Source: an uncultured Gammaproteobacteria bacterium
GTDB lineage: Bacteria; Patescibacteriota; Microgenomatia; UBA8517
Assembly (NCBI GenBank): GCA_964617045.1
Contig: CAZTVZ010000001.1
Location: forward strand, 90,521 to 134,762
Reading direction: 5' to 3'
DNA length: 44,242 nt
A program made the translations under genes and the position numbers. Under the pieces are notes generated by a model. It searched no databases, was not told where the DNA came from, and saw only the letters and a list, made by a program, of their open reading frames with translations. Below are positions 8,603 through 24,508 of the stretch, one piece after another (position 1 is the stretch's first letter; each line of letters begins with the position of its first letter).

Positions 8603-8613
8603 GTAACCAAAGA

Positions 8614-8649: not shown

Positions 8650-8666
8650 ATTATGGGTTAACTATG

Positions 8667-8675
8667 TGCTATAAT
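8667..8675 (+). promoter_or_regulatory. Extended -10 promoter of cassette B
   Basis: TGCTATAAT directly after terminator A; SD AAAGGAGG at 8732-8739. Confidence 0.7.
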
Positions 8676-8744
8676 CGGGCGTCGTCTGGAAAGCCCAAAC
8701 GATAATGCACCTTAAAATTCATTCAATTCTAAAAGGAGGCTGGG

Positions 8745-8969: not shown

Positions 8970-8981
8970 TAAGGAGGAGAT

Positions 8982-9143
8982 ATGTTCGAAGAAATCAATA
9001 ATATTATTGCCTCAATTGGTTCATCTCTTGCAATCCTCCTCTGTGTTGTTGCATGGCCGACAATTCTTTGGATCTTGTTCAAAGGGATTTACCATTCTGT
9101 TTTTAAAGAAAAAGACAGAACAAAAAAAGAGGGGGAAATATGA
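8982..9143 (+). CDS. Small single-pass membrane protein, 53 aa (missed by the ORF track)
   Basis: AAGGAGG SD; MFEEINNIIASIGSSLAILLCVVAWPTILWILFKGIYHSVFKEKDRTKKEGEI*; ATGA overlap with the next gene. Confidence 0.75.
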   Translation: MFEEINNIIASIGSSLAILLCVVAWPTILWILFKGIYHSVFKEKDRTKKEGEI

Positions 9144-9487
9144 ACCCATACACAAATATATTTTCAAACGTATGCGTAATTATTGCATCCGTGTATATTC
9201 TGTATGCGTTTCTCACAAGAAGAATGGGAGAAGAATTCGAAGAAAGCTTTCGACCTATTCTGGTAATTGCTTTTCAGCTGATCAGCATCGGCTACACGGG
9301 ATTTATCGTCTTGGCGATAATTGCCCGGGATATTACTACCGCACTTTCATATCTGCTAATCCTATCCATACTTATCATCCTCACAATATTGAACATTAGG
9401 TTGGTTGAACCAAAATCACTCTTGTTCGACGAACTATTGTTTTTAAGTATGAGAAAATTTTTGTCCAGTGATGATATGGATGAGTAG
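9140..9487 (+). CDS. Membrane protein, 115 aa, about 3 TM segments
   Basis: Three hydrophobic stretches; translationally coupled by the ATGA overlap. Confidence 0.75.
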   Translation: MNPYTNIFSNVCVIIASVYILYAFLTRRMGEEFEESFRPILVIAFQLISIGYTGFIVLAIIARDITTALSYLLILSILIILTILNIRLVEPKSLLFDELLFLSMRKFLSSDDMDE

Positions 9488-9505
9488 AATTGAATGTTCA
9501 TTAGT

Positions 9506-9555
9506 AGGCACGGGTTGGATTATTCCAACAGAACAATTGTTCACCGTGCCTTTTT
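9506..9555 (+). terminator. Branched intrinsic terminator of cassette B
   Basis: AGGCACGG/CCGTGCCT stem plus T tract, enclosing GTTGGA-TTAT-TCCAAC and GAAC-AATT-GTTC hairpins. Confidence 0.75.
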
Positions 9556-9573
9556 CTATGTTATAAATTAATT

Positions 9574-10077
9574 ATGGATAGGGTAGTGGTTGTAAACGAT
9601 AAAATGCAAAAGGATTATTCCTATCATCTTTCAGAAAAGATGGGGGATGGTTTTGATCCCGATTTTAAACCTGAATTAACCCCAAAAGAAATGCTAAAGA
9701 TGGGAGTATTCGGTGGAAAATACATGACAGATTGTGCAAGGGAATTTCCTAAAGATTGGTATACCGAAGCAAAATTAAATTCCGAAAAGCATGATCCTCA
9801 GTTGAATTATTTTGGTGTTAATGCTTCTCAACCCCTTTCCGTATGGAAGAAAAAGGGATGGATAAATAAACAGGATCCGAGGGGTTGGTTTCAATGGTAT
9901 TGTCGATATTTTATGGGCAGAAGAAGTCTTGATGACGAAAGACAAATCAAAAGATGGAAAGCCATCAAAAGACATATCGGTCAAATCAAAAAGAATTGTA
10001 AACCGAAAGACCTAAACTGCAGAAAAGTCCAAAGACAAGCCCTTCTTCATTGGGCTATTGATTCCAGGAAGATTTAA
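9574..10077 (+). CDS. Conserved hypothetical protein (TPxEML..GVFGGKY / DPRGWFQWYCRY..GRR family)
   Basis: Highly patterned Trp/Tyr/Arg motifs that I recall from an uncharacterised family; function unknown. Confidence 0.8.
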   Translation: MDRVVVVNDKMQKDYSYHLSEKMGDGFDPDFKPELTPKEMLKMGVFGGKYMTDCAREFPKDWYTEAKLNSEKHDPQLNYFGVNASQPLSVWKKKGWINKQDPRGWFQWYCRYFMGRRSLDDERQIKRWKAIKRHIGQIKKNCKPKDLNCRKVQRQALLHWAIDSRKI

Positions 10078-11024
10078 TGTCCTTTGCCGTGGAATGCTTG
10101 ATGAATATCCCTCAATTGCTTATTCGTAACGTGTGTATATATTTGAGTGGTTGCAATATTTTTATGGCCCAACATTTCCTGAACGCTTCTCAAGTCAGCT
10201 CCGGCCATTAATAGATCCGTTGCAAAAGAATGTCTCAATACGTGAGGTGTTACTTCCATGGGCAACTTAATTTTTCTTGCATAACCTTTGATCATTCTTT
10301 GAATGCTTCTTACAGTTAGCCTCATTTTTTCATCACCGGTTGAAGGATCTTTAGATCCTTTATGTCTTATAAATAAAGGCTTGTAGTGATCATTTCTGTT
10401 TTTGAGATAGTTGTCTATCCATTCCGCAGCTCTTCCGGAAAGGAATACCACTCTTGCCCTTCCTCCTTTTCCGACTATCCCAAACTCTTTTCTTTCCATA
10501 TCAATTTGATCCCTATTTAGTTTAGTAAGTTCGGAAACACGAAGCCCTGTTGAAAACAATACTTCGAGAATCGCCTTGTCTCTTTTTCCTTGTATTGTGG
10601 ATAATGTTGGAGCATTTAAGAGTCTGTCTACCATATCTCCGGTTAAAAATTTGACCGTTCTTTCGGGTATTTTCGGTAAATCAATTTTTTCGGGGGCCAT
10701 CACTTTAAGGTCATTTTTAATAAGCCATTTAAGAAAAGACCGTAATGCGATTACATGATAGCCTTGAGTTTTTCTCCCCAAAGTACCACCTTTTCCGTCA
10801 GTCAGTCCCGACAAATAGACCCTGTAAGACCTGACAACATCGGAATTGATGTCGTTTAGCCCTTGGTGAATATGTTCGTTTTCCAGATAATGAATAAATC
10901 TGTCCAAATAATGTTTGTAATTTCTTATTGTTAGGGGAGAGGAGCCTTTTTCGACTTGAAGATAACCCAAAAAATCAGTTACTTTTTTCGCAATTTCAGA
11001 CTGATTGGGCTGGGACTCAGTCAT
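10074..11024 (-). CDS. XerC/XerD-family tyrosine recombinase
   Basis: N-terminal SAM-like domain, LFSTGLRVSEL, HVLRHSFATDLL, LGHKNIATTQIYTH catalytic residues. Confidence 0.95.
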   Translation of the reverse strand: MTESQPNQSEIAKKVTDFLGYLQVEKGSSPLTIRNYKHYLDRFIHYLENEHIHQGLNDINSDVVRSYRVYLSGLTDGKGGTLGRKTQGYHVIALRSFLKWLIKNDLKVMAPEKIDLPKIPERTVKFLTGDMVDRLLNAPTLSTIQGKRDKAILEVLFSTGLRVSELTKLNRDQIDMERKEFGIVGKGGRARVVFLSGRAAEWIDNYLKNRNDHYKPLFIRHKGSKDPSTGDEKMRLTVRSIQRMIKGYARKIKLPMEVTPHVLRHSFATDLLMAGADLRSVQEMLGHKNIATTQIYTHVTNKQLRDIHQAFHGKGH

Positions 11025-11032
11025 GTTATTTC

Positions 11033-11061
11033 ATAATAATGTTTCACAGAGGATGTGTCAA
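11033..11061 (-). promoter_or_regulatory. sigma70 promoter of the xer gene (near-leaderless)
   Basis: TTGACA-17 nt-TATTAT-8 nt-ATG on the minus strand. Confidence 0.7.
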
Positions 11062-11084
11062 TAAGATTGTGCGACGTAGAAGAA

Positions 11085-11768
11085 TTATTTACCTACAAAT
11101 AATTTTTTATAAACAGGGTAGAGTGTCGGCTCCTTGTCCAAATCGACTTCGATTTCGTCATATTCTATTACCCTGGGCATAGGTTTAACTTTATAGTTGT
11201 ATCTATGTGGAACAAGCATAATTTCGACTTTGTCGTCAACTTCAAGAATTTTTTCTGTATCTTCCAAAGAATCTTCTATATGAAGTGCAATTCCAAGTCT
11301 TTTTATGGTATTCGCTTTGAACATTTTTCTTTCTTCACGAACATTCGTATTACAAAGATTTATTGTATTTTGATCGACAAAAGGAAAATGAATTTTAAAC
11401 CATTCCCTGGTCATTTCTGCGCTCCTAGCCTCACGGGAAGTAATTATCTGAGGCTTAACTCCATAATCGTAGAGTTTTCCAAGAAGAATTTCGGCTCCTT
11501 CAATGGGTGGAGATTTTAATAAAATTTCGGGCGTATACCATAATTTTATAAGCACTTCATAAGCTTCGGCTTCAGACAAACCTTCATCCATTGCCCAATG
11601 TTGGACACAATCCCAGTGATCCAAATCCGCAGGTTTTTTATTTGTTCCAAAAATTTTATTAAATTCTTCAACAACCGGAACACCTGAATAAGCAAGACAT
11701 CCATCAACATCGAAACTGATGTTGGAATATTTTAAAATTTCTCCTGTTCTAGGTCGTTCCAGTCTCAT
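11085..11768 (-). CDS. HAD-superfamily 5'(3')-deoxyribonucleotidase-like protein
   Basis: FDVDGCL motif I, ITSR motif II, HIEDS motif. Start placed at 11768 because TACAAT lies 7 nt upstream. Confidence 0.75.
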   Translation of the reverse strand: MRLERPRTGEILKYSNISFDVDGCLAYSGVPVVEEFNKIFGTNKKPADLDHWDCVQHWAMDEGLSEAEAYEVLIKLWYTPEILLKSPPIEGAEILLGKLYDYGVKPQIITSREARSAEMTREWFKIHFPFVDQNTINLCNTNVREERKMFKANTIKRLGIALHIEDSLEDTEKILEVDDKVEIMLVPHRYNYKVKPMPRVIEYDEIEVDLDKEPTLYPVYKKLFVGK

Positions 11769-12145
11769 TTCGGGCATTGTACACGAGGTAAATTAATAAT
11801 TCCATTGGAATATAAATTAGCCTCAAATATAACCTCACCAAATCGATTCTAAGGCCTGTCTAAATGAAAAGACGACTATCTATTCATCCCGTACTATTGG
11901 GCTTTTATGCAAATCGTTATTTTTATTATTAACACTATTTTGTAACTATTTTTCACAAACACTGGAAAACAGGGGAGGGGTACTAAACGATAAAATTCAT
12001 TTCGGGATAGTTTCGGTCGGAGAAAATAAATATCGAACATCAAAAACAGGGAAAATACATAGTAGTACAGTTACTTTTCGTTTTTTATGCCAGACATGTT
12101 CCTTAGCATACACTGACCTTATCCCTACCCTTACATTTTTAGAAT

Positions 12146-12173
12146 AGGTCGCAAAAGTTACATTGTGCGACTT
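12146..12173. other. Candidate dif-like Xer recombination site (11-6-11)
   Basis: AGGTCGCAAAA-GTTACA-TTGTGCGACTT; arms are 9/11 complementary. It lies in the long intergenic gap about 1.1 kb from xer, near the gene-strand switch. Confidence 0.5.
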
Positions 12174-12359
12174 ACCATATTCAAAGAGGCTGGGATGAAT
12201 AAATCATTAATTAATAAGTATTCAATACCATCGAGGGATAATCTAAAAAACATTGTGTAATAAATTTTAAAGGGTCTTCCCCGGTTGTTCCGTCTATCTA
12301 ACCGTTACACGCCTAGAAAGAGCGAAAGAGGCTCTTGTAGGCATATTAGCCTTGAAAAG

Positions 12360-12368
12360 TTATCCACA
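12360..12368 (+). promoter_or_regulatory. Consensus DnaA box
   Basis: TTATCCACA exact match; TTTTTCACA at 11949-11957 also fits TTWTNCACA. Confidence 0.45.
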
Positions 12369-12634
12369 GAGAGAAGGTTTAGAGGAATAATTACGTGTTT
12401 TCGTGCCTAGTAACTATATCATTGTGTATCACCATTTACCCCCAAGGGAAGTTTCGGGTTTTTTCCGCAATACGATTTGTCGCAAATTGTGAAAATTGTG
12501 AAGTATATTTGTGAAAATTAGCACTCCCCAGTCTTGATTAATAACCTATAATTATAGGGTGTGTACTACCCTCTCTCCCCTTGTCGGGGTATGTTTAAAT
12601 TTTTTTCTTATTTTGTGCGTAATCTGAAGCTAAT

Positions 12635-13405
12635 TTATAAACCCCATTTCGTGGCTATGAACATTCCAATAAAAACAAGCCCAACCATGAAAAGATATTC
12701 CCTCAGAGTTTGTGAGAATAATCTACCCTCCCACAGAGCCTGACCTAAACCTACCAACATGTAAATTGCCATAGTTAAAAACAACGAACCGACAACAACC
12801 GTAACCGGCCAAAAGAATAAAGACGCTGCAATCTCCCCCACTATCAAACTAGAAATCAAACTGTATGTAACTATTTCTTTTGAAAATTCGTTTTTTAAAT
12901 CTACCTGCCAAATTCCCTGAACCATTAATGGAAATGCTAATGCGGCAATAGACAGTGCAGTGATGGGGAGGAGAGTTCTTAAAGACAATATTGCATCAAA
13001 AACAAGGAACGAAGTGACAAGTGTGAGTACAAATCCAACACCGCGAGCGGCCCTCAACAGTGCAATTGTTCTTACAGCAGAAACGGTAAAAATATTCATT
13101 GTTAATGCAAGTATGTAGATGCCTATTCCGAAAAACAAAATTATCGGGATTCTGGTAAACACACTTGAAGGAAGAAGGAACCAAAAAATTCCCACACCCA
13201 ATGTAAACATAGTAGGTAAAATTAGTGTAAGAAGAGTCGCGTTTTTGCCGATTCCTTCGCGTAAACTAAACCAAAAAAGTCCCGTTGTCAGAAGTCCCAA
13301 TAATCCGATTGCAGGAAACTTAAATCTTTCATCTAACAGCTGTATACCGATAAATCCCAAGGAAAGGAGAATGGAAGTTAATACAAATTTACGTCTTTTG
13401 CTCAT
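12635..13405 (-). CDS. Multi-pass membrane protein of unknown function (possibly DUF5656-like)
   Basis: About 8-9 hydrophobic segments, directly downstream of yebC; the family label is from memory and uncertain. Confidence 0.75.
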   Translation of the reverse strand: MSKRRKFVLTSILLSLGFIGIQLLDERFKFPAIGLLGLLTTGLFWFSLREGIGKNATLLTLILPTMFTLGVGIFWFLLPSSVFTRIPIILFFGIGIYILALTMNIFTVSAVRTIALLRAARGVGFVLTLVTSFLVFDAILSLRTLLPITALSIAALAFPLMVQGIWQVDLKNEFSKEIVTYSLISSLIVGEIAASLFFWPVTVVVGSLFLTMAIYMLVGLGQALWEGRLFSQTLREYLFMVGLVFIGMFIATKWGL

Positions 13406-13420
13406 TGTTCGGGCAAGGGC

Positions 13421-14167
13421 TTATTTATTAAGTTGAGCCATTATTTCATCCGAAATTTCGCTGTTGTCCGAAACTTTCTGAACATCATCGTCGTCGTTAA
13501 GGCTGTCCAAGAAATTAAGCACCTTTTGGGCATCTCCCGTATTATCGATTTTTACGGTATTAACAGGTTTCATGTAAAGTTCCAAATCCGATATTTCAAA
13601 TCCTGCTTCTTCAACCTTTTTCCTGGTTTCCGAAAGTTTATCCGGAGCCGTATAAACCTCTATTGATCCGTCCATCTCTTCGACATCCTCGGCCCCCAAA
13701 TCAATTAGTTCCAACATTAAATCCTCGATGTTTCCTTCTTTTTTGGCAACAAAGTACCCCTTGCTGACAAAGTTGAAAGAAACCGATCCTGGTCCACCCA
13801 AGTTGCCCCCTACTCTTTCAAAAAGATTTTTAATAACCTGTCCGGTTCTGTTTTTATTATCAGTTGCAACCGTAACAAGGACCGCTATTCCGCAAGGACC
13901 GAATCCTTCGTAGGTTGCTTCTTCGATGTTTTCTGCTGAAGACTGAGCTCTGGCAAGTGCCCTGTCGATATTATCTTTAGGCATGTTAGAACCTCGGGCT
14001 TTTTCAATAACAACCCTTAATTTGAAGTTGGTATCAGGATCAGGACCGCCTCCGGTTTTAATCGCAATTGCGATTTCCTTGGCGATCTTACTGAATATCT
14101 TCCCTTTTTGGGCATCTTTCAGTTCCTTCTGTCTGTGTATTGTTGCGTAATGTGAATGACCTGACAT
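13421..14167 (-). CDS. yebC: YebC/PmpR family protein
   Basis: MSGHSHYATI, NMPKDNIDRA, YEGFGPCG, TDNKNRT, DDDDVQKV. Confidence 0.95.
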   Translation of the reverse strand: MSGHSHYATIHRQKELKDAQKGKIFSKIAKEIAIAIKTGGGPDPDTNFKLRVVIEKARGSNMPKDNIDRALARAQSSAENIEEATYEGFGPCGIAVLVTVATDNKNRTGQVIKNLFERVGGNLGGPGSVSFNFVSKGYFVAKKEGNIEDLMLELIDLGAEDVEEMDGSIEVYTAPDKLSETRKKVEEAGFEISDLELYMKPVNTVKIDNTGDAQKVLNFLDSLNDDDDVQKVSDNSEISDEIMAQLNK

Positions 14168-14229
14168 ATAAAAAGCCCTTTCGGACTTGGGATATTATAC
14201 CTCATAGGCCACTCCCCTTTCAAACCACG

Positions 14230-14281
14230 AAAAACCCGAGGCTTGTAGATGGCATAAGCCAAATACTTACCTCGGGTAAGT
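14230..14281 (-). terminator. Terminator-like 3' element of cassette C with an alternative fold
   Basis: ACCCGAGG/CCTCGGGT plus TTTT; competing ACTTACC-CGA-GGTAAGT hairpin. Confidence 0.6.
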
Positions 14282-14293
14282 CATACTGCGAAT

Positions 14294-14449
14294 TTAATAC
14301 GATCCAAGTATTGCAAGGATAATAATTAGTATTACAAGCAAAAAAGCACAAAGAGCTGAAATTGATGCTTCAAAGATATGCCTTAATGTTTGCACGACCC
14401 TTCCTATTTTTCTTTTTTCTTCCCTCAAGTCGGCCATGGCAACCACCAT
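14294..14449 (-). CDS. Small membrane protein, 51 aa
   Basis: TAATG coupling to the upstream ORF; MVVAMADLREEKRK...SALCAFLLVILIIILAILGSY* with a C-terminal TM segment. Confidence 0.6.
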   Translation of the reverse strand: MVVAMADLREEKRKIGRVVQTLRHIFEASISALCAFLLVILIIILAILGSY

Positions 14450-14583
14450 TATGGTATCGCCGGACCGCCAACAAGCGGAATAATTACAAATAGGATTACG
14501 ATCGCAATAACAATGAACCAAAATGTTTCTTTTGCGCTTGGTGTTGTGTTAGGATCTCGAACATACTTAATCTGTTTGGACAT
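14449..14583 (-). CDS. Small single-pass membrane protein, 44 aa (missed by the ORF track)
   Basis: GGAGG SD inside the end of the upstream ORF; MSKQIKYVRDPNTTPSAKETFWFIVIAIVILFVIIPLVGGPAIP*. Confidence 0.7.
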   Translation of the reverse strand: MSKQIKYVRDPNTTPSAKETFWFIVIAIVILFVIIPLVGGPAIP

Positions 14584-14584
14584 T

Positions 14585-14785
14585 TTATCCTCCTGAACCG
14601 GCATATTTACTGCAAATGTTTGTTAACAAGATCAAAAAATACCACAAGGTAACAATGGTTGCCACGCCAAAGGCAGTCGCAACATCTGCAGCGGATCTTT
14701 TTGTCAACACTAAGTAAGCAGTTGTTCCCCACAAAAGACCGGCCGAAAGCACAAAAGCTAAAGGAATAATTAACTCGATTACCAT
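14585..14785 (-). CDS. Small two-pass membrane protein, 66 aa
   Basis: GAAAGGAGG SD; two hydrophobic helices. Confidence 0.75.
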   Translation of the reverse strand: MVIELIIPLAFVLSAGLLWGTTAYLVLTKRSAADVATAFGVATIVTLWYFLILLTNICSKYAGSGG

Positions 14786-14830
14786 TTTTCCTCCTTTCTT
14801 CGCAGTATGTTAAAGAGCAAATTTCGCTAC

Positions 14831-14874
14831 AAAAAAAGCTCCTCTTTGGTAAGGCTAACCTTGCCACTGGAGCT
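14831..14874 (-). terminator. Leader terminator/attenuator of cassette C
   Basis: AGCTCC...TGGCAAGG-TTAG-CCTTACCA...GGAGCT followed by a T tract, between the promoter and the first ORF. Confidence 0.65.
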
Positions 14875-14893
14875 CCTCTTGAGCAGTGTGGGT

Positions 14894-14922
14894 ATTATAT
14901 CACATTATGGGTCATTTGTCAA
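14894..14922 (-). promoter_or_regulatory. Consensus sigma70 promoter of cassette C
   Basis: TTGACA-17 nt-TATAAT with extended TG. Confidence 0.85.
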
Positions 14923-14946
14923 GTACTTGGGTTTTAAATTAGGCAT

Positions 14947-14983
14947 AAAAAGGGGGTAATTTCCTTGTTAGGATTTTACCCCC
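14947..14983 (-). terminator. Intrinsic terminator of cassette D
   Basis: GGGGGTAAAATCCT-AACA-AGGAAATTACCCCC plus TTTTT. Confidence 0.85.
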
Positions 14984-14987
14984 ACTT

Positions 14988-16119
14988 CACTTCATCAGAT
15001 CGGATATTGCCTTACTACCAAATGGTTCAATGCCTCAATACGCACCTGCATGTCTTTGATCAGGTTTGCGTCCTCGAATTCGCATGCATATTCGAATTGT
15101 TTTGGACTATGTGCATTGATCATCATTCCTGAAATGATTTGGTTCATCATTCCCAAATCACACCAAAAAGCCTCAGTACAAGCAATTTCTACCCATTCGC
15201 GGTACTCATCGGCAAGGGTGATTGCCCTATCAAGAAGATTCTTGTAAATACCAGGGTCGTCATGCAACTTAGGCTCATACTCCTTAATATAAAACATTAT
15301 CTGTTCGAAATTGCCAATCAAATTTACTGCTGTACTGATAGCCTCAGGCTGATATCTATTTGATTGTTCGAATACAAGCTGACAATCTTCAGGCATAACT
15401 TCCTCTTCCTTGAGAAGTTGAGCACATGCTTTTTCCTTCGCATCTACCGCTTTCTTGGATATTTCTTGCGCTTCAACTTCAATCACTTGATTAAGTTCGT
15501 CGACTCCCGAGGCAAGTTCACATGCTTTTAAGTATGCATTTTCGGCTATTGCCAGATACTCGGCATTGGTTTGGAATTCAACGTTATTTGATGCGACTTC
15601 GTAAACTCCAAAATAGTCAGAAAATGTTTTGGCCATACAATGGCTCTTTCGTAAAAGGTGCAGCTGTGTTTTCTTCTCCTCAATGTATTCAAATATGGGA
15701 ATCGCCATATCCGTTCTGCCGGCATCCAAAATTGCACTTCGAATAATCTCCCATTTCCATTCCGAACTTATGTCCGGATCTGATTGAATCAGACGCAACG
15801 CCGTTTTAATTTCATCGGTGTAATGAGAGTATATATATATCTTATTGAGCAGATCCTTTTTTTCCTTGGCTCTCTCATGCTGATCTTTGACCTGGTCATA
15901 CATCCTCAATTCCCATAATTCCAAAAAGTTGTTAAAGGATGCTCCGGAATACGAATATAATTCGGCCTTTACCTTTTTCTCAATCTTTTTCCCTCTTGAT
16001 ACACATACCTTGGCATATTCCATCCATGCTCTACGGGTTCCAATACGGCCGGCAAGATACCGCAATAAAAATAACGGTGCTTTCATTTTTCCCTCCTTTG
16101 GGTTAAATCTGATGAAATG
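14988..16119 (-). repeat. Cassette D closing inverted repeat (arms 16119-16107 and 15000-14988)
   Basis: CATTTCATCAGAT / ATCTGATGAAGTG, 13 bp with one U-G wobble in the sense RNA; the right arm contains the TGA stop. Confidence 0.8.
14995..16086 (-). CDS. Hypothetical alpha-helical (repeat-like) protein, 363 aa
   Basis: Start moved to MKAPLF because AAAGGAGG precedes ATG 16086; no recognisable catalytic motif. Confidence 0.8.
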   Translation of the reverse strand: MKAPLFLLRYLAGRIGTRRAWMEYAKVCVSRGKKIEKKVKAELYSYSGASFNNFLELWELRMYDQVKDQHERAKEKKDLLNKIYIYSHYTDEIKTALRLIQSDPDISSEWKWEIIRSAILDAGRTDMAIPIFEYIEEKKTQLHLLRKSHCMAKTFSDYFGVYEVASNNVEFQTNAEYLAIAENAYLKACELASGVDELNQVIEVEAQEISKKAVDAKEKACAQLLKEEEVMPEDCQLVFEQSNRYQPEAISTAVNLIGNFEQIMFYIKEYEPKLHDDPGIYKNLLDRAITLADEYREWVEIACTEAFWCDLGMMNQIISGMMINAHSPKQFEYACEFEDANLIKDMQVRIEALNHLVVRQYPI

Positions 16120-16179
16120 TAAAAGTACAGTGCTTACAGTAAGCACAAATTAACTTTGAGCATAATTTCAAAGTGCCTG

Positions 16180-16208
16180 ATTCTAGCCTATTATAGGCTT
16201 AATGTCAA
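16180..16208 (-). promoter_or_regulatory. sigma70 promoter of cassette D with a palindrome in the spacer
   Basis: TTGACA-17 nt-TAGAAT; AGCCTAT-N-ATAGGCT dyad at 16185-16199. Confidence 0.8.
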
Positions 16209-16271
16209 AAATGTCTCATCTAGTTCTTGACTTCTTTCCCCACTTTTCTATACTCTTTTTTAGTCTTAATC

Positions 16272-16976
16272 ATGGATACGTCTGCCCAACTGGCAATAAA
16301 ACAAGCTCTCCAAGGAAACTGGGTTGAAGCAATTAAAATAAACGAAGGAATTTTAAAAGATAATCCTGAAGATATTGATGCTCTCAATAGGCTTGGCCGT
16401 GCACACAGTGAACTTGGATGCATTAAAAAGGCAAAAGATGCAGCACAAAAGGTTCTTAAAATATCTCCCGACAACTCAATCGCCCTTAAGGCTTTAATCA
16501 AACTCGAAAATATGGATGAGGGAGAATGCCCATGTGGGAAGATATCCTCACCGGACGATTTTTTGGAAGAACCAGGGAAAACAAAAATGATGTATGTCAT
16601 GCATCAGGGAGACCCCAAAGTAATTGCCACTCTTGATGCTGGAGACGAAGTTAGGCTTGACTCCCACAGCCACAGATTGGAGATATTAACCGAAGACGGA
16701 AAATATGTAGGAAGGTTGCCTGATGATTTGTCGGCGAGAATTAAAATGCTTATCTCATGTGGTAACGAATACAAAGTGGTCATTAAGTCTCTCGATCAAG
16801 CTGGCGTAAAAATACTGCTTAGAGAAACAAAAAATAAGAGTGGCACACCCAGCTTCCCGGCAGAAAAAATTGAATATGTGAGTTTTACTCCTCCCGAGTT
16901 GGTACACAAAAACGATATGGAGATTTCCGCTTCGGAAGAAGAGTCACATTCTTTGGACGGAGCAGGAGTATCTTAA
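16272..16976 (+). CDS. TPR-containing protein with a C-terminal HIRAN-like beta domain
   Basis: AIKQALQGNWVEAI / DIDALNRLGRAH TPR pattern; GKYVGRLPDDLS HIRAN-like segment. TTGACT-16-TATACT promoter upstream supports start 16272. Confidence 0.7.
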   Translation: MDTSAQLAIKQALQGNWVEAIKINEGILKDNPEDIDALNRLGRAHSELGCIKKAKDAAQKVLKISPDNSIALKALIKLENMDEGECPCGKISSPDDFLEEPGKTKMMYVMHQGDPKVIATLDAGDEVRLDSHSHRLEILTEDGKYVGRLPDDLSARIKMLISCGNEYKVVIKSLDQAGVKILLRETKNKSGTPSFPAEKIEYVSFTPPELVHKNDMEISASEEESHSLDGAGVS

Positions 16977-17905
16977 TATCTCTTTCCAAACTTCTCACCC
17001 AATTCGACAACCAAATCAAAATTACCTTCGGGCTTTTCATATTTCTTACCACAAGAGTAGATCAAAGATACTTCGTTTACCATTTTTTTGTTCTCCCCTT
17101 TTACCAGGCAGTCAAATTCAATTTTCTCACCCTTATCGACAGAGGCGGCTTTAATACCCAATACCTCAAGGGTAGATCCGACTTCTTGGGCAACATATAA
17201 TTTCCCCGTGTTGTCTTTGATTAGAGCTTTATATCCCATTCTTCCGTATTCCTGACTGCCGAATACCACAAGCAAGTTGTTGGGTATTTTGGATGTGGGA
17301 ACATATCCCATTTCCCCATCAACAAGTTTTTCTTTTCTCAAATATGTTGTATTTTCCAAACTCATATCTATTCTTTTTCCTCCGGACACACCCATTGAAT
17401 AGATCATCAGGTTAATTTTGTCTCCAAAACCCATATTGGATCCTCCGAACGAGAACAAAGATCCCAGCATTGGAAGAAGTTTGCCTTCAGCAAGAGCAAG
17501 ATGTTTATCGTTCGCCCAAGCCGAAACAGGAAAGTGAAAATTACGCACAATGGACTCCTGCATTAACGTTCCTCCCATTTTCTCATTCTCTCCCAATTTC
17601 CAAAGACTTTTTGATTTCCATGAACCCAACTGTCTCGATACGGTAAGTTGAGTGTTTGCAGGAATCGTAATATTTGTAATCTCACCCGCTTCAGGATCAA
17701 AGGTGGATACAATAATTTCTCCTTCTTTGCCCTGAATCGCAATACTAACTTTATTTTTCCCTCCAAAATGACAATCCGTACAAAAGACATATGCAATGAT
17801 TCCAAGGATTACAAACAAGGGAATAAGAATTGGCCAAACGTTAAACGAAGACTTTTTCTTTCTATACACTCTCATTCTGTGGTTTTGGGCAGTTTTTCTC
17901 TTCAT
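16973..17905 (-). CDS. Membrane-anchored LytR/CpsA/Psr (LCP)-like protein
   Basis: Basic N-terminus plus TM segment, ITNITIPANTQL LCP-like strand, C-terminal LytR_C-like DLVVELG. Confidence 0.55.
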   Translation of the reverse strand: MKRKTAQNHRMRVYRKKKSSFNVWPILIPLFVILGIIAYVFCTDCHFGGKNKVSIAIQGKEGEIIVSTFDPEAGEITNITIPANTQLTVSRQLGSWKSKSLWKLGENEKMGGTLMQESIVRNFHFPVSAWANDKHLALAEGKLLPMLGSLFSFGGSNMGFGDKINLMIYSMGVSGGKRIDMSLENTTYLRKEKLVDGEMGYVPTSKIPNNLLVVFGSQEYGRMGYKALIKDNTGKLYVAQEVGSTLEVLGIKAASVDKGEKIEFDCLVKGENKKMVNEVSLIYSCGKKYEKPEGNFDLVVELGEKFGKRY

Positions 17906-17963
17906 TAAACCGTACTTCTTAGTCTAATAAGAAAAGGTCATGCGTGTAAAGGGGATTGTGAAA

Positions 17964-18674
17964 TTACTCTACTTGATTCAGATTATTAACAACCTTTTGA
18001 AGGTCTTCCGGCAAGTCTTGGGAGTAGGTTACCCTTTCTCCGCTGCCGGGATGATTAAACGAGATGTCTTTGGCGTGCAAAAATAATCTTGGGCACCATT
18101 TCCTGTCGTTTCTGGCTGTTTTTCTCCCGGCATAAAAATCGTCAGCAACAATAGGATTACCCAAATGCTTCATATGTATTCTTATTTGATGTGTTCTCCC
18201 CGTCTTGGGTTTACATTCGACAAGAGAATACGATCCTTCTTGGTTGGAATAGTGTGCTTTTACTTCGTAAAGAGTAAGAGCATCCCTTCCCCCGGGCAAT
18301 ACGCCAAAACGATCCCTCCTCCAAGGAAGCCTTCCGACTGGAGCGTTTACCTCTCCCTTTTCGCTGGCTAATTTTCCGTGGACCAGACAAACATACGTTT
18401 TTTCTACTTCCCTCTCCTTAAATTCGCGTTGGAGAGCCCAAAACACCCCTTCGGTCTTGGCAACAAGAAGCAGTCCTGATGTTTCTTTGTCCAGTCTGTG
18501 CACAATGCCATTTCGAAGCTCACGATTATTGTTAAGGGGGTAATCAAGAGTTGTTCTTGCCCATTTCTGCAGTACGGGTTGGGTTGTAGTGGTATCAGCC
18601 TCATTCGTAATCCAGCCGGCTGGTTTTGATACAACAAAATACTCCGTATTTTCGTATATTACTTTAGGTTCCAT
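17964..18674 (-). CDS. RluA-family pseudouridine synthase
   Basis: VSKPAG, VHRLDKETSG catalytic Asp, KTGRTHQIRIH, LFLHA. Confidence 0.95.
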   Translation of the reverse strand: MEPKVIYENTEYFVVSKPAGWITNEADTTTTQPVLQKWARTTLDYPLNNNRELRNGIVHRLDKETSGLLLVAKTEGVFWALQREFKEREVEKTYVCLVHGKLASEKGEVNAPVGRLPWRRDRFGVLPGGRDALTLYEVKAHYSNQEGSYSLVECKPKTGRTHQIRIHMKHLGNPIVADDFYAGRKTARNDRKWCPRLFLHAKDISFNHPGSGERVTYSQDLPEDLQKVVNNLNQVE

Positions 18675-18695
18675 GAGAGTATTTTAACACGAAGA

Positions 18696-19082
18696 TTAAC
18701 TCTCTCTTTTTTTCTGGCATGAAGTGCACAGTGTGGCTTCCGGATATATGGAAAGTCTGTCGGTATCGATCATCTTTCCACAGTCTTCACAAAGTCCATA
18801 CTTTCCCTTTTCAAGTCTTTTCAAAGCTTTTTTGGTTTGATCGATTTTCTTGTTTAATTCTTTTTTAATTGCCGCAGTTCGCGCATGACCGAATTGTTCA
18901 TCTGCTTCCGTATCAGGAGCTGCATTATCGGAAACCCTCAAATCATTCTTGAAAGGATCTTCCTTTTCTATTGTTTTCTTTCTTAAGGTCAATTTTTGTA
19001 AGTTTTCCTTTAAAAAGACTCCAATAGGACTAAGCAGGTTTGTCGGAAACATTACTTTTTTATTTTCTTCTTTCTTGCTCAT
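18696..19082 (-). CDS. TraR/DksA C4-type zinc-finger protein
   Basis: Coiled coil plus YGLCEDCG...RL...P.ATLCTSC. Confidence 0.88.
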   Translation of the reverse strand: MSKKEENKKVMFPTNLLSPIGVFLKENLQKLTLRKKTIEKEDPFKNDLRVSDNAAPDTEADEQFGHARTAAIKKELNKKIDQTKKALKRLEKGKYGLCEDCGKMIDTDRLSIYPEATLCTSCQKKRES

Positions 19083-19681
19083 GTTCTTTGCCTTGCTAAG
19101 TTAAATACTAACAGAAAAAATGTAAATGCAAAAATACCCGAAACAATCACTTCGTATTTACCAGAGAAGGATATCACGAAAGGAAAAAAGGAAGCAATGA
19201 TTGCTCTTGCCAGGAAAAACAATCCAGATATGGTAAGCCCGGTAAAACCGATTCTTCCGGAACGATACCAAGAAAACTTTTTATAGTGTCTGTCAAAAAA
19301 ATATGCCAAACCCATGAGAATAACAATAAAAATAAAATAACCGAAGGAAAATAAACTTCTTGCCCCAACGGAGTCAATTAAAAAAGTAAAAGAAAGCATC
19401 GGCAGAATACTGACAACAAATGCTTCGTAAGTTTCATAGAATCTAAGCTTATTTTTGATTATCCCCAGAGACAATCCAACGGTAAGCCCGACAACTCCTC
19501 CGTACATCCACCATGGCTGCAGATATTTGGTAAAAATAAAAAGGAAAATAGCCAAACCCAATAGCGAAAATAAACCGGTGGAAAATATTTGATTTGCAGG
19601 ATAATCTTCTCTTAATTTTTTCCAGAAAAGAAACAGGTACAGAAATATCCCCAGAATATTAAAAAGTATTGAGATAAACAT
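19079..19681 (-). CDS. Multi-pass membrane protein (weakly Lgt-like)
   Basis: About 6-7 TM segments; start at 19681 from TGATATACT 8 nt upstream. The canonical Lgt HPTQLYE motif is not seen. Confidence 0.65.
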   Translation of the reverse strand: MFISILFNILGIFLYLFLFWKKLREDYPANQIFSTGLFSLLGLAIFLFIFTKYLQPWWMYGGVVGLTVGLSLGIIKNKLRFYETYEAFVVSILPMLSFTFLIDSVGARSLFSFGYFIFIVILMGLAYFFDRHYKKFSWYRSGRIGFTGLTISGLFFLARAIIASFFPFVISFSGKYEVIVSGIFAFTFFLLVFNLARQRT

Positions 19682-19736
19682 CCGACACCAGTATATCATT
19701 TGACTTAGTGTGAAAAATAGCTTTAAGATTTAAACA

Positions 19737-20198
19737 ATGTTGGAAACTCCACATGTTCTGGTCGGCGCGGCAATAGCCACAAAAATTCCCAATCCCTTTA
19801 TTGCAATTCCGCTTGCTCTTCTGTCTCATTTTGCCTTGGAAAAAATTCCCCACTGGAATCCTCACCTTAATACCGAAACAAAAAAGTACGGAAAGTTAAC
19901 ATCACAAACAATGAGAATAATTGTTGCCGATACTACGATTGCCCTAATATCCGGAAGTATTATTTCCACGCTGGTACTGCCCGATCGTGCACATGCTTTA
20001 ACAATTTTACTTGCCTGTTTTGCATCCGCTCTTCCGGACATCGTTGAAGCACCATACTTTCTTTTCAAGGTGCGGGCAAAAATACTGGAAGATTACATCA
20101 AGTTGCAGAAAAAACTTCAGGTGGATGCACCGATTATCCCAGGACTTATTACTCAGCTTTTTGTCATCGCAGGTGCTATTTGGTGGATACTTACTTAG
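19737..20198 (+). CDS. Membrane-bound putative metal-dependent hydrolase (YdjM-like)
   Basis: PHVLVG, SHFALEKIPH, LPD motifs with TM helices. Confidence 0.6.
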   Translation: MLETPHVLVGAAIATKIPNPFIAIPLALLSHFALEKIPHWNPHLNTETKKYGKLTSQTMRIIVADTTIALISGSIISTLVLPDRAHALTILLACFASALPDIVEAPYFLFKVRAKILEDYIKLQKKLQVDAPIIPGLITQLFVIAGAIWWILT

Positions 20199-20751
20199 CT
20201 CTCTCAATATAAGAAGAATCTCTTGTATCAACGATTATCTTTTCCCCCGCCTTGATAAACAAAGGAACTTTTACGTTCATTCCGTTTTCCAACACTGCAG
20301 GTTTATATAAATTGGTAGCAGAATTTCCTTTTACTCCCGGATCGCACTCTTTTACGGTTAAGGCTACTTTGGGAGGAAGTTCAACCGAAAGTGCTTTGTC
20401 GTCCCAAAACAAGATATTGGCGTTTTCCCCTTCTTTCAAAAAAAGGATTGAATCGCCGAGAACGCTTATTGGTATTTCGACTTGTTCAAAGGATTTGGGA
20501 TCCATAAAAAAGGCGTTTGTATCGTCTTTGTACAAATATTGAAGAATCTTTCGATAGGTATTGGCTTCATCAACGGCAACATTGGAACTGAAAGATTTCT
20601 CTTCCACCGAACCGGTTTCCAAATTTCTAACCTGGACTTTTACAACAGCACCTCCCCTACCCATTTTGATAAGAGAATATTTGATAACCTGATAGGGCTT
20701 TCCATATTGCTGAAAAGCGACCCCGTTTTTTAAATCTGTGGAATTAATCAT
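20191..20751 (-). CDS. efp: Elongation factor P
   Basis: KMGRGGA loop, PGVKGNSAT..KPA.LENG..V.VPLFI..GE.I.VDTR. Confidence 0.96.
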   Translation of the reverse strand: MINSTDLKNGVAFQQYGKPYQVIKYSLIKMGRGGAVVKVQVRNLETGSVEEKSFSSNVAVDEANTYRKILQYLYKDDTNAFFMDPKSFEQVEIPISVLGDSILFLKEGENANILFWDDKALSVELPPKVALTVKECDPGVKGNSATNLYKPAVLENGMNVKVPLFIKAGEKIIVDTRDSSYIERAK

Positions 20752-20796
20752 ACAGAGGGTATTTTAACCTAATTTTTGGTATAATTGAAGCCTTAA

Positions 20797-20881
20797 GCCG
20801 AGGTGGCGGAATGGCAGACGCTCAGGTCTCAAAAACCTGTGAGGCTAACACCTCGTGGAGGTTCGACTCCTCTCCTCGGCA
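20797..20881 (+). tRNA. tRNA-Leu(CAA), CCA not encoded
   Basis: Acceptor GCCGAGG/CCTCGGC, D-loop GG, anticodon arm CAGGT-CTCAAAA-ACCTG, long variable arm, GTTCGAC T-loop; TGGTATAAT upstream. Confidence 0.97.
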
Positions 20882-20882
20882 C

Positions 20883-20921
20883 AAAAAAAGCCCTTCCAGA
20901 CTGTTAAGTCAAAGAAGGGCT
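20883..20921 (-). terminator. Intrinsic terminator of cassette E (abuts the tRNA 3' end)
   Basis: AGCCCTTC...GAAGGGCT plus T tract on the minus strand; inner GACT-TAAC-AGTC hairpin. Confidence 0.8.
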
Positions 20922-20929
20922 ACTTACCT

Positions 20930-21352
20930 TCATTTCCACATTTTTTAACGATCGAGTGATTGTTCCGGCCAATCTTCGTAACTTCTACAAGTCAAGGTTA
21001 TTGTCACGGCGGGATATTCCTTCGAAAGAAGGTTGGCAAATCTTTCTGCCCTTTGCAAAGAGCCGTAATACCAGAATATCCATGAGTTTTTCTGGCAAAA
21101 TTCCAGATCTCCCAAATAATAACGCTCCTTAATATTCAACAATTTTTGGATTTTATTCTGGGGCAAAAACTCGTTTGTCGTAAATATCGAAAGCTTACCA
21201 ATGATCGGATCGGGGTACATTTGAGGTACACCTATACTTCCGAATTCATAACCGATGCTTCTTACGAAGTCGATTAATTTCAATAAGTCTACATCCTTTG
21301 CTTGCTCAACTCTGACGCCCATATTTTCCTCCTTATGATTGCGTGGAAATGA
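20930..21352 (-). repeat. Cassette E closing inverted repeat (arms 21352-21342 and 20940-20930)
   Basis: TCATTTCCACG / TGTGGAAATGA, 11 bp with one G-U wobble in the sense RNA; the right arm starts 4 nt after the stop. Confidence 0.75.
20945..21322 (-). CDS. Hypothetical alpha/beta protein, 125 aa
   Basis: Start moved to MGVRVE because TAAGGAGG precedes ATG 21322. Confidence 0.75.
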   Translation of the reverse strand: MGVRVEQAKDVDLLKLIDFVRSIGYEFGSIGVPQMYPDPIIGKLSIFTTNEFLPQNKIQKLLNIKERYYLGDLEFCQKNSWIFWYYGSLQRAERFANLLSKEYPAVTITLTCRSYEDWPEQSLDR

Positions 21353-21395
21353 TATTTGAATGTGCCGATTAACGCATTTGTTAATCCAATGTGGC

Positions 21396-21424
21396 ATTCT
21401 ATAGTGTTATAGGCTATCTGTCAA
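21396..21424 (-). promoter_or_regulatory. sigma70 promoter of cassette E
   Basis: TTGACA-17 nt-TAGAAT, overlapping the dnaB stop region. Confidence 0.8.
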
Positions 21425-22761
21425 GATTTCGAGGCTGATTCTTTCTTTTGTGTTTCTCTTCCGTAGAACTTAATTCTGTCTCCCTTGAAGAAGAGGTTTA
21501 TGGATTTTAGAGGTCCGTTACGGTGCTTTGCTATATCCAAGACTACGTTTTCGGGAGCCTCGTTGTCTTCCCTCCATAAAAACATAACAACATCGGCATC
21601 CTGCTCGATTGACCCTGATTCTCTAAGGTCCGCAAGTTGAGGTTTGTTTCCCCCTCTTTGTTCGACCGCACGGGACAACTGAGATAGCGCAAGCACCGGT
21701 ACTTTCAATTCTCTGGCCAAGTTTTTAAGTCCCTGTGATATTTCCGAAACTTCTTGAACCCTATTCTCCAGCTGTCTCGATCGAGCCAGCTGCAAATAAT
21801 CGACCACGATTAAATCAATCCCCCCGGTTTCAACCTGCAATCTTCGGGCTTTTGTTCTCATTTCAAGAATGGTTAGAGCTGGTGTATCGTCTATATATAT
21901 CGGAGCTTCCGCGAGTTCACCCATTGCTTGCGACAACTTGGAAAAATCATCGTCGTTCAGTTTTCCCGTTTTAAGTTTCCATGCGTCTATGTCTGCCTGC
22001 CCCACAAGAAGTCTATCCACAAGTTCTTCTTTGCTCATTTCCAATGAGAAAAATCCAACCGATCTCTTGTATTTAACTGCCAAATTTTGGGCGATATTCA
22101 AGGCAAAAGATGTTTTTCCTATACCAGGTCTTGCAGCAAGAATAATTAGATTGGATTTTTGCATCCCGGCAAGAGTATCGTCCAAATCTTTAAATCCGGT
22201 AGGAACTCCCCTAAGGGAATCTCCTTGTTTGTGAAGTTCATCTAACCTGTCAAATGATTCTTCCAATGTCGCCCTGACGGGAGTAAATGCTTTTGCGATT
22301 GCTTTTTGGGTAATATGAAATATTTCCGATTCCGCTTTATCGAGAAGTTGATCAGCACCCAAAGAATCATCCAAAGAAAACTCAACCAGTTTGGAAGCTG
22401 CGGTCATTAATGTTCTTTTAGTTGCAGCTTCTTTAACGATTTTTCCGTAATGTTCAACATGAGCTGCAGTCGGAACTTTATTAACAAGTTCGGCCAGATA
22501 TGTTGCTCCCCCGACTTTTTTTAAATCTTTTTGTTTTTTTAATTTTTCCGTTACGGTTAATACGTCAACCGGAACTCTCTCTTCATAAAGAGCGACACAA
22601 GCTTCAAAAATCATTTTGTGTCTGTCGTCGTAAAAATCGTCTGCACTTAAAAACTCCGCAACTGCAATAATTGCGTCTTTATCCAGTAGGAGCGCACCAA
22701 GGACAGATTCTTCAGCTCCGGCAGAATGAGGTGGTATTCTAACGTTCAATGCTTCCGGCAT
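21421..22761 (-). CDS. dnaB: Replicative DNA helicase
   Basis: PPHS..AE.SVLG, AARPGIGKT, FFSLEMS, VVDYLQL, LSQLSR, DLRESGSIEQDADVVMFL. Confidence 0.97.
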   Translation of the reverse strand: MPEALNVRIPPHSAGAEESVLGALLLDKDAIIAVAEFLSADDFYDDRHKMIFEACVALYEERVPVDVLTVTEKLKKQKDLKKVGGATYLAELVNKVPTAAHVEHYGKIVKEAATKRTLMTAASKLVEFSLDDSLGADQLLDKAESEIFHITQKAIAKAFTPVRATLEESFDRLDELHKQGDSLRGVPTGFKDLDDTLAGMQKSNLIILAARPGIGKTSFALNIAQNLAVKYKRSVGFFSLEMSKEELVDRLLVGQADIDAWKLKTGKLNDDDFSKLSQAMGELAEAPIYIDDTPALTILEMRTKARRLQVETGGIDLIVVDYLQLARSRQLENRVQEVSEISQGLKNLARELKVPVLALSQLSRAVEQRGGNKPQLADLRESGSIEQDADVVMFLWREDNEAPENVVLDIAKHRNGPLKSINLFFKGDRIKFYGRETQKKESASKS

Positions 22762-22781
22762 GTTAGATTAAATAAATACTC

Positions 22782-23429
22782 TTATTTTCTTTCAAGAACA
22801 ACTACTTTTTGTTCTTCGCCAAATTCTTCTTTTTTAATTGATAGTTTTGGCAGAGTCTCGACAGGAAGACCCATATCTTTTACAAATTCATCGTAAGTAT
22901 TTAGGTGTCCAAAATTGGTTTGGTTTAACCCTTCTTCCTGATAATGCATTGGGATAATTATTCTTGGCTCAATTGCCTGTGCAACTTTAACCGCGCTTTC
23001 CGAGTTAAGAGAAGACCCTCCCCCAACCGGGATCATCAGTATGTCTATATCCCCGATATCTCCAATTAAACTTTCCGATAATTGGTGTCCAAGATCACCC
23101 AAATGACACAACCTAAGACCATCAATTTCGTACACATAAATTGTATTTTTTCCTTTTTCCTCACCTTTTTTGTCATCGTGATAAGAAGGAAATCCCAGCA
23201 CTGTTACTCCTTGAATTTCGTATTCACCTGGTCCTTTGAGAATTTTTCTTGCTCCGGCAACAAGTTGCGATTGATTATGGTCGTCATGATTATGGGAAAC
23301 AGTAACAATATCCCCCTCAACTCCGGAATATTTTAATCCAACATTTTTCGGATCAAAAGGATCTATAACAACACTTGTTGTTTTCCCTTTTAATTTAAAA
23401 GAAGAATGACCCAAGAAATATATTTCCAT
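22782..23429 (-). CDS. Metallo-beta-lactamase-fold hydrolase
   Basis: LGHSSF, IDPF, VSHNHDDH, HLGDLG, IIPMHY. Confidence 0.9.
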   Translation of the reverse strand: MEIYFLGHSSFKLKGKTTSVVIDPFDPKNVGLKYSGVEGDIVTVSHNHDDHNQSQLVAGARKILKGPGEYEIQGVTVLGFPSYHDDKKGEEKGKNTIYVYEIDGLRLCHLGDLGHQLSESLIGDIGDIDILMIPVGGGSSLNSESAVKVAQAIEPRIIIPMHYQEEGLNQTNFGHLNTYDEFVKDMGLPVETLPKLSIKKEEFGEEQKVVVLERK

Positions 23430-23461
23430 ATACATTGGCAGGATAACAAAATGGCGTTTCG

Positions 23462-23490
23462 TTGACAAGGGTAAAAAGAATTCGTATATT
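23462..23490 (+). promoter_or_regulatory. sigma70 promoter
   Basis: TTGACA-17 nt-TATATT, 19 nt before ATG 23510. Confidence 0.7.
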
Positions 23491-23509
23491 ACCAAGGACT
23501 GCCTTACTA

Positions 23510-24508
23510 ATGAAAAAAGAAGTCATATATGCAATTGTCGCGGGAGGGATATTGGGCCTCCTGATTGCTTTTGGAGCTTGGAGGGTAAATTCCGCTTTAT
23601 CACCCAAAGAAAAGGAAACACCAAAAGTACAAAACAATATTATTAAAAATTCCACAAATATTTCTATTGCTTCACCAAACAATCTGGATGTGCTTGTTAA
23701 ATCTCCAACAACTATAAGCGGGCTTGCAAAGGTTGCCTCGTTGGTGGTAATCAGCTCCGACGAAGAAGACGTTTTGGTCAGATCCGACAATGAAGGATCA
23801 TTTTCCGGAGAGATAGAACTTTCTGGGGGTGTAAATAATATCAACGTAGGAATATTCAACGACAAAGGAGATTATGAAAAACAATCAATAAAAGTTGTAT
23901 ATTCAACCGAATTTGCAAAAATTACTCCTCCGGAAATTCCCACGGACAATCCCACATCTTCAGATTCTGTAAGACAAAAAGTTCAAGATAAATTAAAAGA
24001 TGCTTACAACAATCCCCTTGCGTATATGGGAACAATTACCGACATTTCGGAGAACGGAATTCAGATAAAAACTTCCGAAGGAGAAATCGAACAAATCTCA
24101 ACAACCGAAAGTCCAACCGTTATCCAAGACGGTAAAAACGCAAAAGAAGTAAAACTCACGGATATTGCCATTGGAGATTATGTGGTTGCAATGGGTTTTA
24201 CGGGAAATCATGTCCTCACCGCAAAAAGAATATTAATTACTACCGAAAAACAAATGAATACCGCTGCATATCTTTCGGGAAAAGTAGAAAAAGCAACAAG
24301 TAAGGATATTACAGTTAAAAACGACAAGGACGAATCGTCCGTTCTTGCTCTTTCTCAAAGTACAACTTCGACATATCTTCTGGAAGGAGATAAATTGTCC
24401 AAAGTAAAGTTCAGCAACATTTCGGTTGACGACAAAGTATATCTGATTGGAAAAATAGAAAACGAAAAGTTTCTCCCGAGAACAATCTTTATAATCGGCA
24501 GGCCTTAA
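23510..24508 (+). CDS. Membrane-anchored surface protein with Ig-like and two OB/DUF5666-like beta domains
   Basis: N-terminal TM segment; TISGLA..DNEGSFSGEIEL..GVNNI Ig-like segment; two repeats of G.I..I......V.T...DI..GD.V. Confidence 0.7.
   Translation: MKKEVIYAIVAGGILGLLIAFGAWRVNSALSPKEKETPKVQNNIIKNSTNISIASPNNLDVLVKSPTTISGLAKVASLVVISSDEEDVLVRSDNEGSFSGEIELSGGVNNINVGIFNDKGDYEKQSIKVVYSTEFAKITPPEIPTDNPTSSDSVRQKVQDKLKDAYNNPLAYMGTITDISENGIQIKTSEGEIEQISTTESPTVIQDGKNAKEVKLTDIAIGDYVVAMGFTGNHVLTAKRILITTEKQMNTAAYLSGKVEKATSKDITVKNDKDESSVLALSQSTTSTYLLEGDKLSKVKFSNISVDDKVYLIGKIENEKFLPRTIFIIGRP

Follow-up and report, generated by a model that had tools for sequence, protein, structure and literature searches.

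A conserved CCYATAA heptad in the spacers of three Patescibacteria promoters as a candidate operator word

Steric repressors of the LacI, TetR or LexA type act through operators located between the -35 and -10 hexamers of strong promoters, and other regulators use units of 7 base pairs (bp): the "0A box" of Spo0A (TGTCGAA) and the sites of the ribbon-helix-helix omega repressor of pSM19035 are 7-bp units that occur singly, in tandem or inverted. Here we analyze a 44,242-nucleotide (nt) stretch of a Patescibacteria genome (contig CAZTVZ010000001.1; hereafter the window), in which three promoters, designated C, D and E, carry the heptad CCYATAA between their hexamers. As with the operators of the LacI, TetR and LexA-type proteins, this is a short conserved word in the 17-bp spacer of near-consensus promoters of unrelated genes, and it is kept by selection; those operators, however, are dyads of 12-20 bp, whereas each window promoter has one asymmetric heptad. 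The units of Spo0A and omega share with the heptad that they are asymmetric 7-bp words present at promoters and in other non-coding regions, but their sequences are unrelated to CCYATAA, and the corresponding Patescibacteria factor is hypothetical. Finally, the plastid psbA promoter has a TATA-like element between its -35 and -10, likewise a TATA-like word in a TTGACA/TATAxT spacer, although from another lineage and without the CC prefix; the papers searched gave no confirmation of this element, and we take the likeness as a lead only.

The described element that coincides with the heptad in position is the Z-element (Yuzenkova et al. 2011, PMC3173786), which spans -24 to -18, with its core at -22 to -18, and lies 5 bp upstream of the -10. 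It is loose in sequence (AACCT, AACAT, AAATT), matters mostly when the -35 or the -10 is weak, and has one orientation (PMC3173786). The heptad, also at -24 to -18 of the spacer, differs in being sharp, in lying in consensus promoters and in being found also reversed and off-register; it has neither the loose consensus nor the weak hexamers of the Z-element. Our literature searches found no account of a CCYATAA spacer motif.

The heptad in the window and in orthologous promoters

The three promoters are:

14894-14922, minus strand: promoter C, with TTGACA (14917-14922), CCCATAA (14905-14911), a TGTGA extended -10 and TATAAT (14894-14899)
16180-16208, minus strand: promoter D, with TTGACA (16203-16208), CCTATAA (16191-16197) and TAGAAT (16180-16185)
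21396-21424, minus strand: promoter E, with TTGACA (21419-21424), CCTATAA (21407-21413) and TAGAAT (21396-21401)

These are the only exact matches to TTGACA-N5-CCYATAA-N5-TAnAAT in the 44 kb, all of them on the minus strand, against an expected number of 0 (100 shuffles), and relaxing the full pattern to 3 mismatches produced no additional match in the window. The heptad fills spacer positions 6-12, which corresponds to -24 to -18 for a 17-bp spacer. The identical register had been noticed in a first-pass annotation of this DNA, and both the spacers quoted there and its observation that D and E have AGCCTATAA in common were borne out by the sequence. According to simulation, the probability that three random 17-nt spacers have seven aligned columns in common is about 1.5e-6. 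Only five TTGACA-N16-18-TAnnnT sites are present in the window, three of which carry the heptad. The bare heptad, on the other hand, is not enriched there (12 observed, 12 expected), and the signal therefore resides in the promoter context and not in the frequency of the word. Promoters C, D and E are also the top-scoring sigma-70-like sites within positions 8000-24000 (12/12, 11/12 and 11/12, respectively), with a 17-bp hexamer spacing and with AGGAGG plus ATG 64-100 nt downstream. Beyond the hexamers and the heptad, the three promoters and their flanks show no homology to each other; the open reading frames (ORFs) that they precede are equally unrelated, as the first-pass annotation had stated.

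The promoters were compared with their orthologs in the nearest diverged relatives, E with that of locus L122 and both D and C with those of locus L127; between the window and these relatives, the orphan proteins have 76-81% identity. None of the 21 heptad positions is changed, compared with 12 of the 30 remaining spacer positions (Fisher p=5.4e-4). The -35 hexamer is equally invariant (0/18) and the -10 hexamer nearly so (2/18), which makes the spacer positions outside the heptad the fastest-changing bases of these promoter regions. The comparison supports the view that the heptad is a cis-element common to the three promoters and maintained by purifying selection.

Two associated features fared less well. 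The dyad AGCCTAT-A-ATAGGCT, of which the heptad was thought to form one half in promoter D, exists in the window but is destroyed in L127 (ATCCTATAACATGCT), and is therefore not the functional unit; promoters C and E have no dyad. A MerR-type activator site, which would have a 19-20-bp spacer and a conserved central dyad, was rejected, given that the spacers are 17 bp long and that the dyad of D is not conserved. Likewise, the reverse form TTATGGG is indeed present next to a further promoter, B (8651-8657), which has a weak -35 and relies on an extended -10. We judge it a chance occurrence, as it is a single reverse-oriented word overlapping this weak -35, and it carries no weight because the window-wide count of the word is at chance level.

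Recurrence in other genomes and an inverted heptad pair

A pattern scan over one genome per species, with register and orientation fixed, returned at least 120 loci. Among the matches listed, 24 are labelled as Patescibacteria (Saccharibacteria, Dojkabacteria, Collierbacteria, Daviesbacteria, Microgenomates and "Patescibacteria group") and about 13 more resemble them, a share far above what we take, from a rough estimate, to be the share of this phylum in the sequence of the collection. Eleven of these listed matches are the promoter of rpsO, encoding ribosomal protein S15, in different Saccharibacteria and Dojkabacteria species, and five (L030, L037, L046, L077 and L100) precede orthologs of a single gene for a secreted protein in Collierbacteria and Microgenomates; a consensus of about 40 bp, aaattgcctcTTGACAaaaagCCYATAAtgtgaTATAAT, is common to a group of gut genomes. 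The listed loci from outside the Patescibacteria are mostly Clostridia, and include unrelated operators such as TATACCCnnnnGGGTATA. The promoter layout is thus present in three Patescibacteria classes and at unrelated genes, including the housekeeping gene rpsO, and the identical layout at rpsO and at secreted-protein genes of other Patescibacteria shows that the set is not confined to the cassettes of orphan genes for which it had been proposed.

As a control, we sampled rpsO loci without selection for a promoter motif, by scanning metagenomes with S15 proteins of the candidate phyla radiation (80 loci). The motif was present, at the same place, in the one Saccharibacteria-like locus (L253) and in none of the 79 loci of other phyla. 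Of 16 further consensus promoters in the Patescibacteria loci with the promoter layout, none had the heptad, nor did they show a graded resemblance to it. In promoters of this layout, the heptad occurs only together with a near-perfect -35 and -10 at 17-bp spacing.

Promoters that had not been selected for the motif also provided information on register and orientation. The heptad was found forward at offset 2 in L344, and reversed at offset 2 in L026 and at offset 4 in L053; L253 rpsO and a second site in L053, on the other hand, have the register and orientation of the window. When any orientation and register was allowed, the heptad came second among 420 permuted words tried on Patescibacteria loci, on the basis of four sites, one of which is not listed individually, and it was not enriched in non-Patescibacteria loci. 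A scan of phage contigs with variable gaps gave a broad hump at offsets 3-5 for the heptad, without a sharp peak at offset 5.

Outside promoters, the heptad is present as an inverted pair:

12545-12558, no strand assigned: inverted heptad pair CCTATAA/TTATAGG (CCTATAATTATAGG), in the ORF-less region downstream of the DUF5656 gene
11778-12634, no strand assigned: ORF-less region, about 850 nt long and flanked by the DUF5656 gene and an NT5C-like gene, in a genome that is otherwise densely packed

The perfect palindrome that had been reported at this position is present, and it turns out to be a conserved double copy of the same heptad. It occurs in four lineages, as CCTATAA and TTATAGG in the window and in L340, as CCCATAG and TTATAGG in L343, and as CCCATAA and TAATAAG in L341. 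Two GTGAAAA repeats flank an additional, conserved heptad copy about 45 nt from the pair. At the Y position the copies vary independently of one another, and the Y/R positions of L341 do not co-vary. This fits half-sites for a protein; a helix formed at the RNA level by the two copies was rejected on these grounds.

The ORF-less region as a whole has retained its length and its blocks of sequence in L340, L341 and L343. Besides the heptad pair, it contains an invariant perfect DnaA box, TTATCCACA (12360-12368), and a conserved hairpin (12148-12171), and it has no match in Rfam. It could be a large RNA gene of a new type, or a replication or regulatory region. With regard to an origin of replication (oriC), the region has one DnaA box and no cluster of boxes, and the cumulative GC skew near 10-11 kb has a maximum, not a minimum.

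Several observations at the related loci concern the transcripts downstream. In Collierbacteria and Microgenomates, the motif promoter precedes a signal-peptide protein of about 218 amino acids whose ATG follows the -10 by 8-9 nt; this mRNA is therefore probably leaderless. The rpsO leaders of Saccharibacteria and Dojkabacteria (L003, L007, L009, L011, L012, L045, L058, L074, L078, L116, L120 and L253) have in common a hairpin and, following it, a TTGTAAAT-like sequence, at 35-45 nt downstream of the -10. This arrangement is possibly an S15 autoregulatory leader outside the coverage of Rfam. In L344 (6345-6817, minus strand), the promoter TTGACA-at-CCTATAA-tagtttgg-TAGAAT, located between dnaB and tRNA-Leu, faces about 450 nt of hairpin-rich sequence devoid of ORFs and without a match in Rfam, which may be an unannotated RNA.

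Possible readings of the heptad

The best-supported reading, to which we give about even chances, is that CCYATAA is the 7-bp operator word of one sequence-specific DNA-binding protein of this Patescibacteria lineage. A protein positioned on the heptad, at -24 to -18, would compete with RNA polymerase. Since the heptad lies between the hexamers, where a bound protein would block the polymerase, its effect on the promoters would probably be repression rather than activation, judging from position only. What was observed is the motif itself, the selection on it, its recurrence and, in relatives, its apparent freedom as to orientation and register; that a protein binds it and represses is what we infer. 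Promoters C, D and E would then constitute one regulon of orphans placed at two variable spots, and the inverted pair at 12545-12558 would serve as a dimer site. The first-pass annotation had likewise proposed, as one of two possibilities, a co-regulated set under one regulator. The part of that proposal that has stood is carried by the selection (0/21 against 12/30), the recurrence and the conserved double copy at 12545, which fit one trans-acting regulator and hence co-regulation; the dyad of D, the TTATGGG word and the specificity for cassettes had to be dropped.

Several observations weigh against a dedicated regulator. No candidate for it was found: the DNA-binding annotations in the window are only YbaB/EbfC (35261-35542) and YebC (13421-14167), neither of which is linked to the heptad. 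Each promoter site consists of one asymmetric heptad, and for most bacterial repressors such a site is weak. The three sites of the window have one register and one orientation, and this register coincides exactly with the Z-element window; the sites from the collection scan have the same register and orientation, although that scan could find no other. Within +/-150 bp of the promoters, one auxiliary heptad copy was observed where 3.8 were expected, and the other registers and orientations are evidenced by four sites only.

The main rival is that the heptad belongs to the core promoter and is recognized by the polymerase, or by a factor travelling with it, as a sharp, lineage-specific version of the Z-element with a beta' zipper/zinc-binding contact, which would boost or tune very strong promoters. 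We regard this as unlikely, though far from negligible. It keeps its weight through the shared offset and orientation of the three window sites and of the unselected sites in L253 and L053, through the single asymmetric heptads of the promoters, and through the small number of sites, four, that speak for other offsets and orientations. Its position is that of the Z-element, as set by swapping -24 to -18 (PMC3173786), and the spacer layout, A/T-rich followed by CC, TATAAT and a G-rich TRTG, mirrors the four-region AT/GC/AT/G-rich organization of spacers across bacteria (PMC12641261). The three window promoters, the unselected rpsO promoter of L253 and the second L053 site all have the same register and orientation, and the element occurs at unrelated genes, rpsO among them, in three Patescibacteria classes; the approximately 38 collection matches are uninformative on register and orientation because the scanned pattern fixed both. 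However, the distribution is discrete and not graded (0/16 other promoters), a 7-bp word has a much higher specificity than the "loose" Z-element, from whose AACCT and AACAT the YATAA differs, and the heptad never stands in for a weak -35. Moreover, unselected promoters contain it reversed and off-register, an inverted pair of it lies where no promoter is recognizable, and phage promoters lack a sharp peak at offset 5. In a mutagenesis study in Escherichia coli, one consensus -35/-10 pair at 17 bp had similar strength with weak and strong spacers (PMC12641261); if this case is valid here, extra affinity for polymerase is unlikely to be the reason for the heptad. Taken together, the on/off distribution, the near-perfect hexamers, the reversed and off-register sites, the inverted pair and the phage hump point away from an element intrinsic to the polymerase.

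Two other explanations we consider improbable. The less probable one, by a little, is that CC-YATAAY serves as an extra -10 located 10 bp upstream of the other, generating tandem starts from overlapping promoters. The CCTATAAT of D is a perfect TATAAT, part of a GAGACA-16-TATAAT match, and in L339 a CCTATAAT acts as the -10 of a TTGATT-17-TATAAT promoter. Yet the critical final T is a C in E, both in the window and in L122, and in D of L127, and an A in most rpsO promoters; these C residues show that the heptad is not a second -10 box. In addition, the CC, which is dispensable for a -10, is fixed, and there is no conserved -35 upstream. In a variant of this explanation the box would be a -10 of the sigma-28 type, the consensus of which is GCCGATAA and to which GCCTATAA is identical at 7 of 8 positions; however, no TAAA is found about 15 nt upstream of the GCCGATAA-like site in C, D or E, and the G of CCGATAA is a T or a C. 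The other explanation, which the first-pass annotation had also raised, is common descent only, in which the three promoters were copied from one ancestor and the heptad is a functionless leftover. The identical orientation and register, the AGCCTATAA and TAGAAT that D and E both possess, and the location of the genes in variable regions where DNA comes and goes would all fit such an origin. But between close relatives, 40% of the other spacer positions differ and none of those in the heptad, and a neutral remnant would have decayed; a fixed heptad amid a changing spacer is therefore not explained by a shared ancestor alone. Nor is anything alike outside the hexamers and the heptad, and the heptad recurs at unrelated loci and in other lineages.

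The genes concerned, their setting and the meaning of the heptad

The transcribed features downstream of the three promoters are:

14825-14885, minus strand: leader of transcript C, located upstream of the first ORF and forming a strong terminator-like hairpin with a U-run after it
14294-14785, minus strand: operon C, three small hydrophobic ORFs of 66 (14585-14785), 44 (14449-14583) and 51 (14294-14449) amino acids
14995-16086, minus strand: gene D, encoding a 363-amino-acid all-helical orphan protein
20945-21322, minus strand: gene E, encoding a 125-amino-acid orphan protein

The ORFs of operon C are supported by gene calls in L128-L131. The relatives of the D and E proteins amount in each case to only 2 clusters among 5.8e9 proteins, and their AlphaFold2 models have predicted local distance difference test (pLDDT) scores of 51 and 48, respectively, too low for the models to be of use; C, D, E and the neighbouring orphans have no match in Pfam, PHROGs, PADLOC or NCBIfam. 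Gene D was found on a metatranscriptome contig, which is the sole evidence of expression and shows only that D is transcribed. The RNA-seq runs are mostly labelled "METAGENOMIC RNA-Seq", and their contigs span promoters, most of them looking like DNA.

The leader hairpin of transcript C has a folding energy of -34.7 kcal/mol (z -3.49) and is retained in L127 through compensatory changes; it may function in attenuation or constitute a small RNA about 65 nt long. In the leader of transcript E, a 7-bp hairpin (21367-21386, minus strand) changes from GATTAAC/GTTAATC to GATTAGC/GCTAATC in L122, a compensatory double change, and the whole leader is better conserved than the beginning of the coding sequence. 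Promoter E abuts a core gene without a gap, the TGA stop codon of dnaB (21421-21423) falling within its -35. Promoters B and C are each closely preceded by a terminator (8614-8649 and 14952-14983, respectively), and the stems of the two are similar (GGGGTAAA...TTTACCCC), a likeness that may be due to chance or to a common type of terminator.

The surroundings are core genome, with gyrB, gyrA, xerC-like, yebC, DUF5656, rluA-like, dksA-like, efp and tRNA-Leu genes, as well as dnaB, rpsF-ssb-rpsR, rpsB-tsf-frr and several tRNA synthetase genes, and a search of Rfam with the window and 23 related loci found tRNAs only. Three observations assign the window to the Patescibacteria, close to Microgenomates, and to digester sludge: its GyrA and the one from a "Patescibacteria group" genome have 71% identity, the closest named relatives of its EF-P are from Woesebacteria (about 70%), and the DNA is present in anaerobic-digester and sludge metagenomes. 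In all five syntenic relatives (L339, L340, L341, L343 and L344; 78 kb), whose EF-P is 73-76% identical, the gene order dnaB-[x]-tRNA-Leu-efp ... TPR-[y]-yebC-DUF5656 is kept, and x and y are occupied by other, unrelated genes or by none. Their contents are genes for 692- and 102-amino-acid proteins, for a 161- or a 201-amino-acid protein, for a TrmB-like and a 157-amino-acid protein, or for small membrane peptides. Thus, C/D and E sit in two variable spots. Elsewhere in the window, the segment 8026-8745, after gyrA, holds only a 189-amino-acid SH3-domain ORF, a structural difference from the close, 97%-identical strain L333, in which a 498-amino-acid Peptidase_M23 gene adjoins the B genes.

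Transcriptional control is barely known in the Patescibacteria (candidate phyla radiation), which have tiny genomes, few recognizable regulators and almost no cultured members. A selected word common to unrelated strong promoters of several classes provides a handle for finding the protein that binds it and for predicting its regulon from metagenomes. The heptad also offers a way into the switching of lineage-specific orphan genes, whose products are often membrane or secreted proteins and may matter for a host-attached lifestyle. If it were read by RNA polymerase instead, it would be an unusually sharp spacer element. A wider and rather doubtful reading is that CCYATAA is a Patescibacteria-wide promoter code, read at -24 to -18 by a conserved factor, which could be a global regulator or else a holoenzyme component peculiar to the Microgenomates/Dojkabacteria/Saccharibacteria clade. 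Such a code would control a class of very strong promoters, ranging from that of rpsO to those of lineage-specific surface and orphan genes, and would mean an additional element of the core promoter or of global control in a phylum with essentially uncharted gene regulation.

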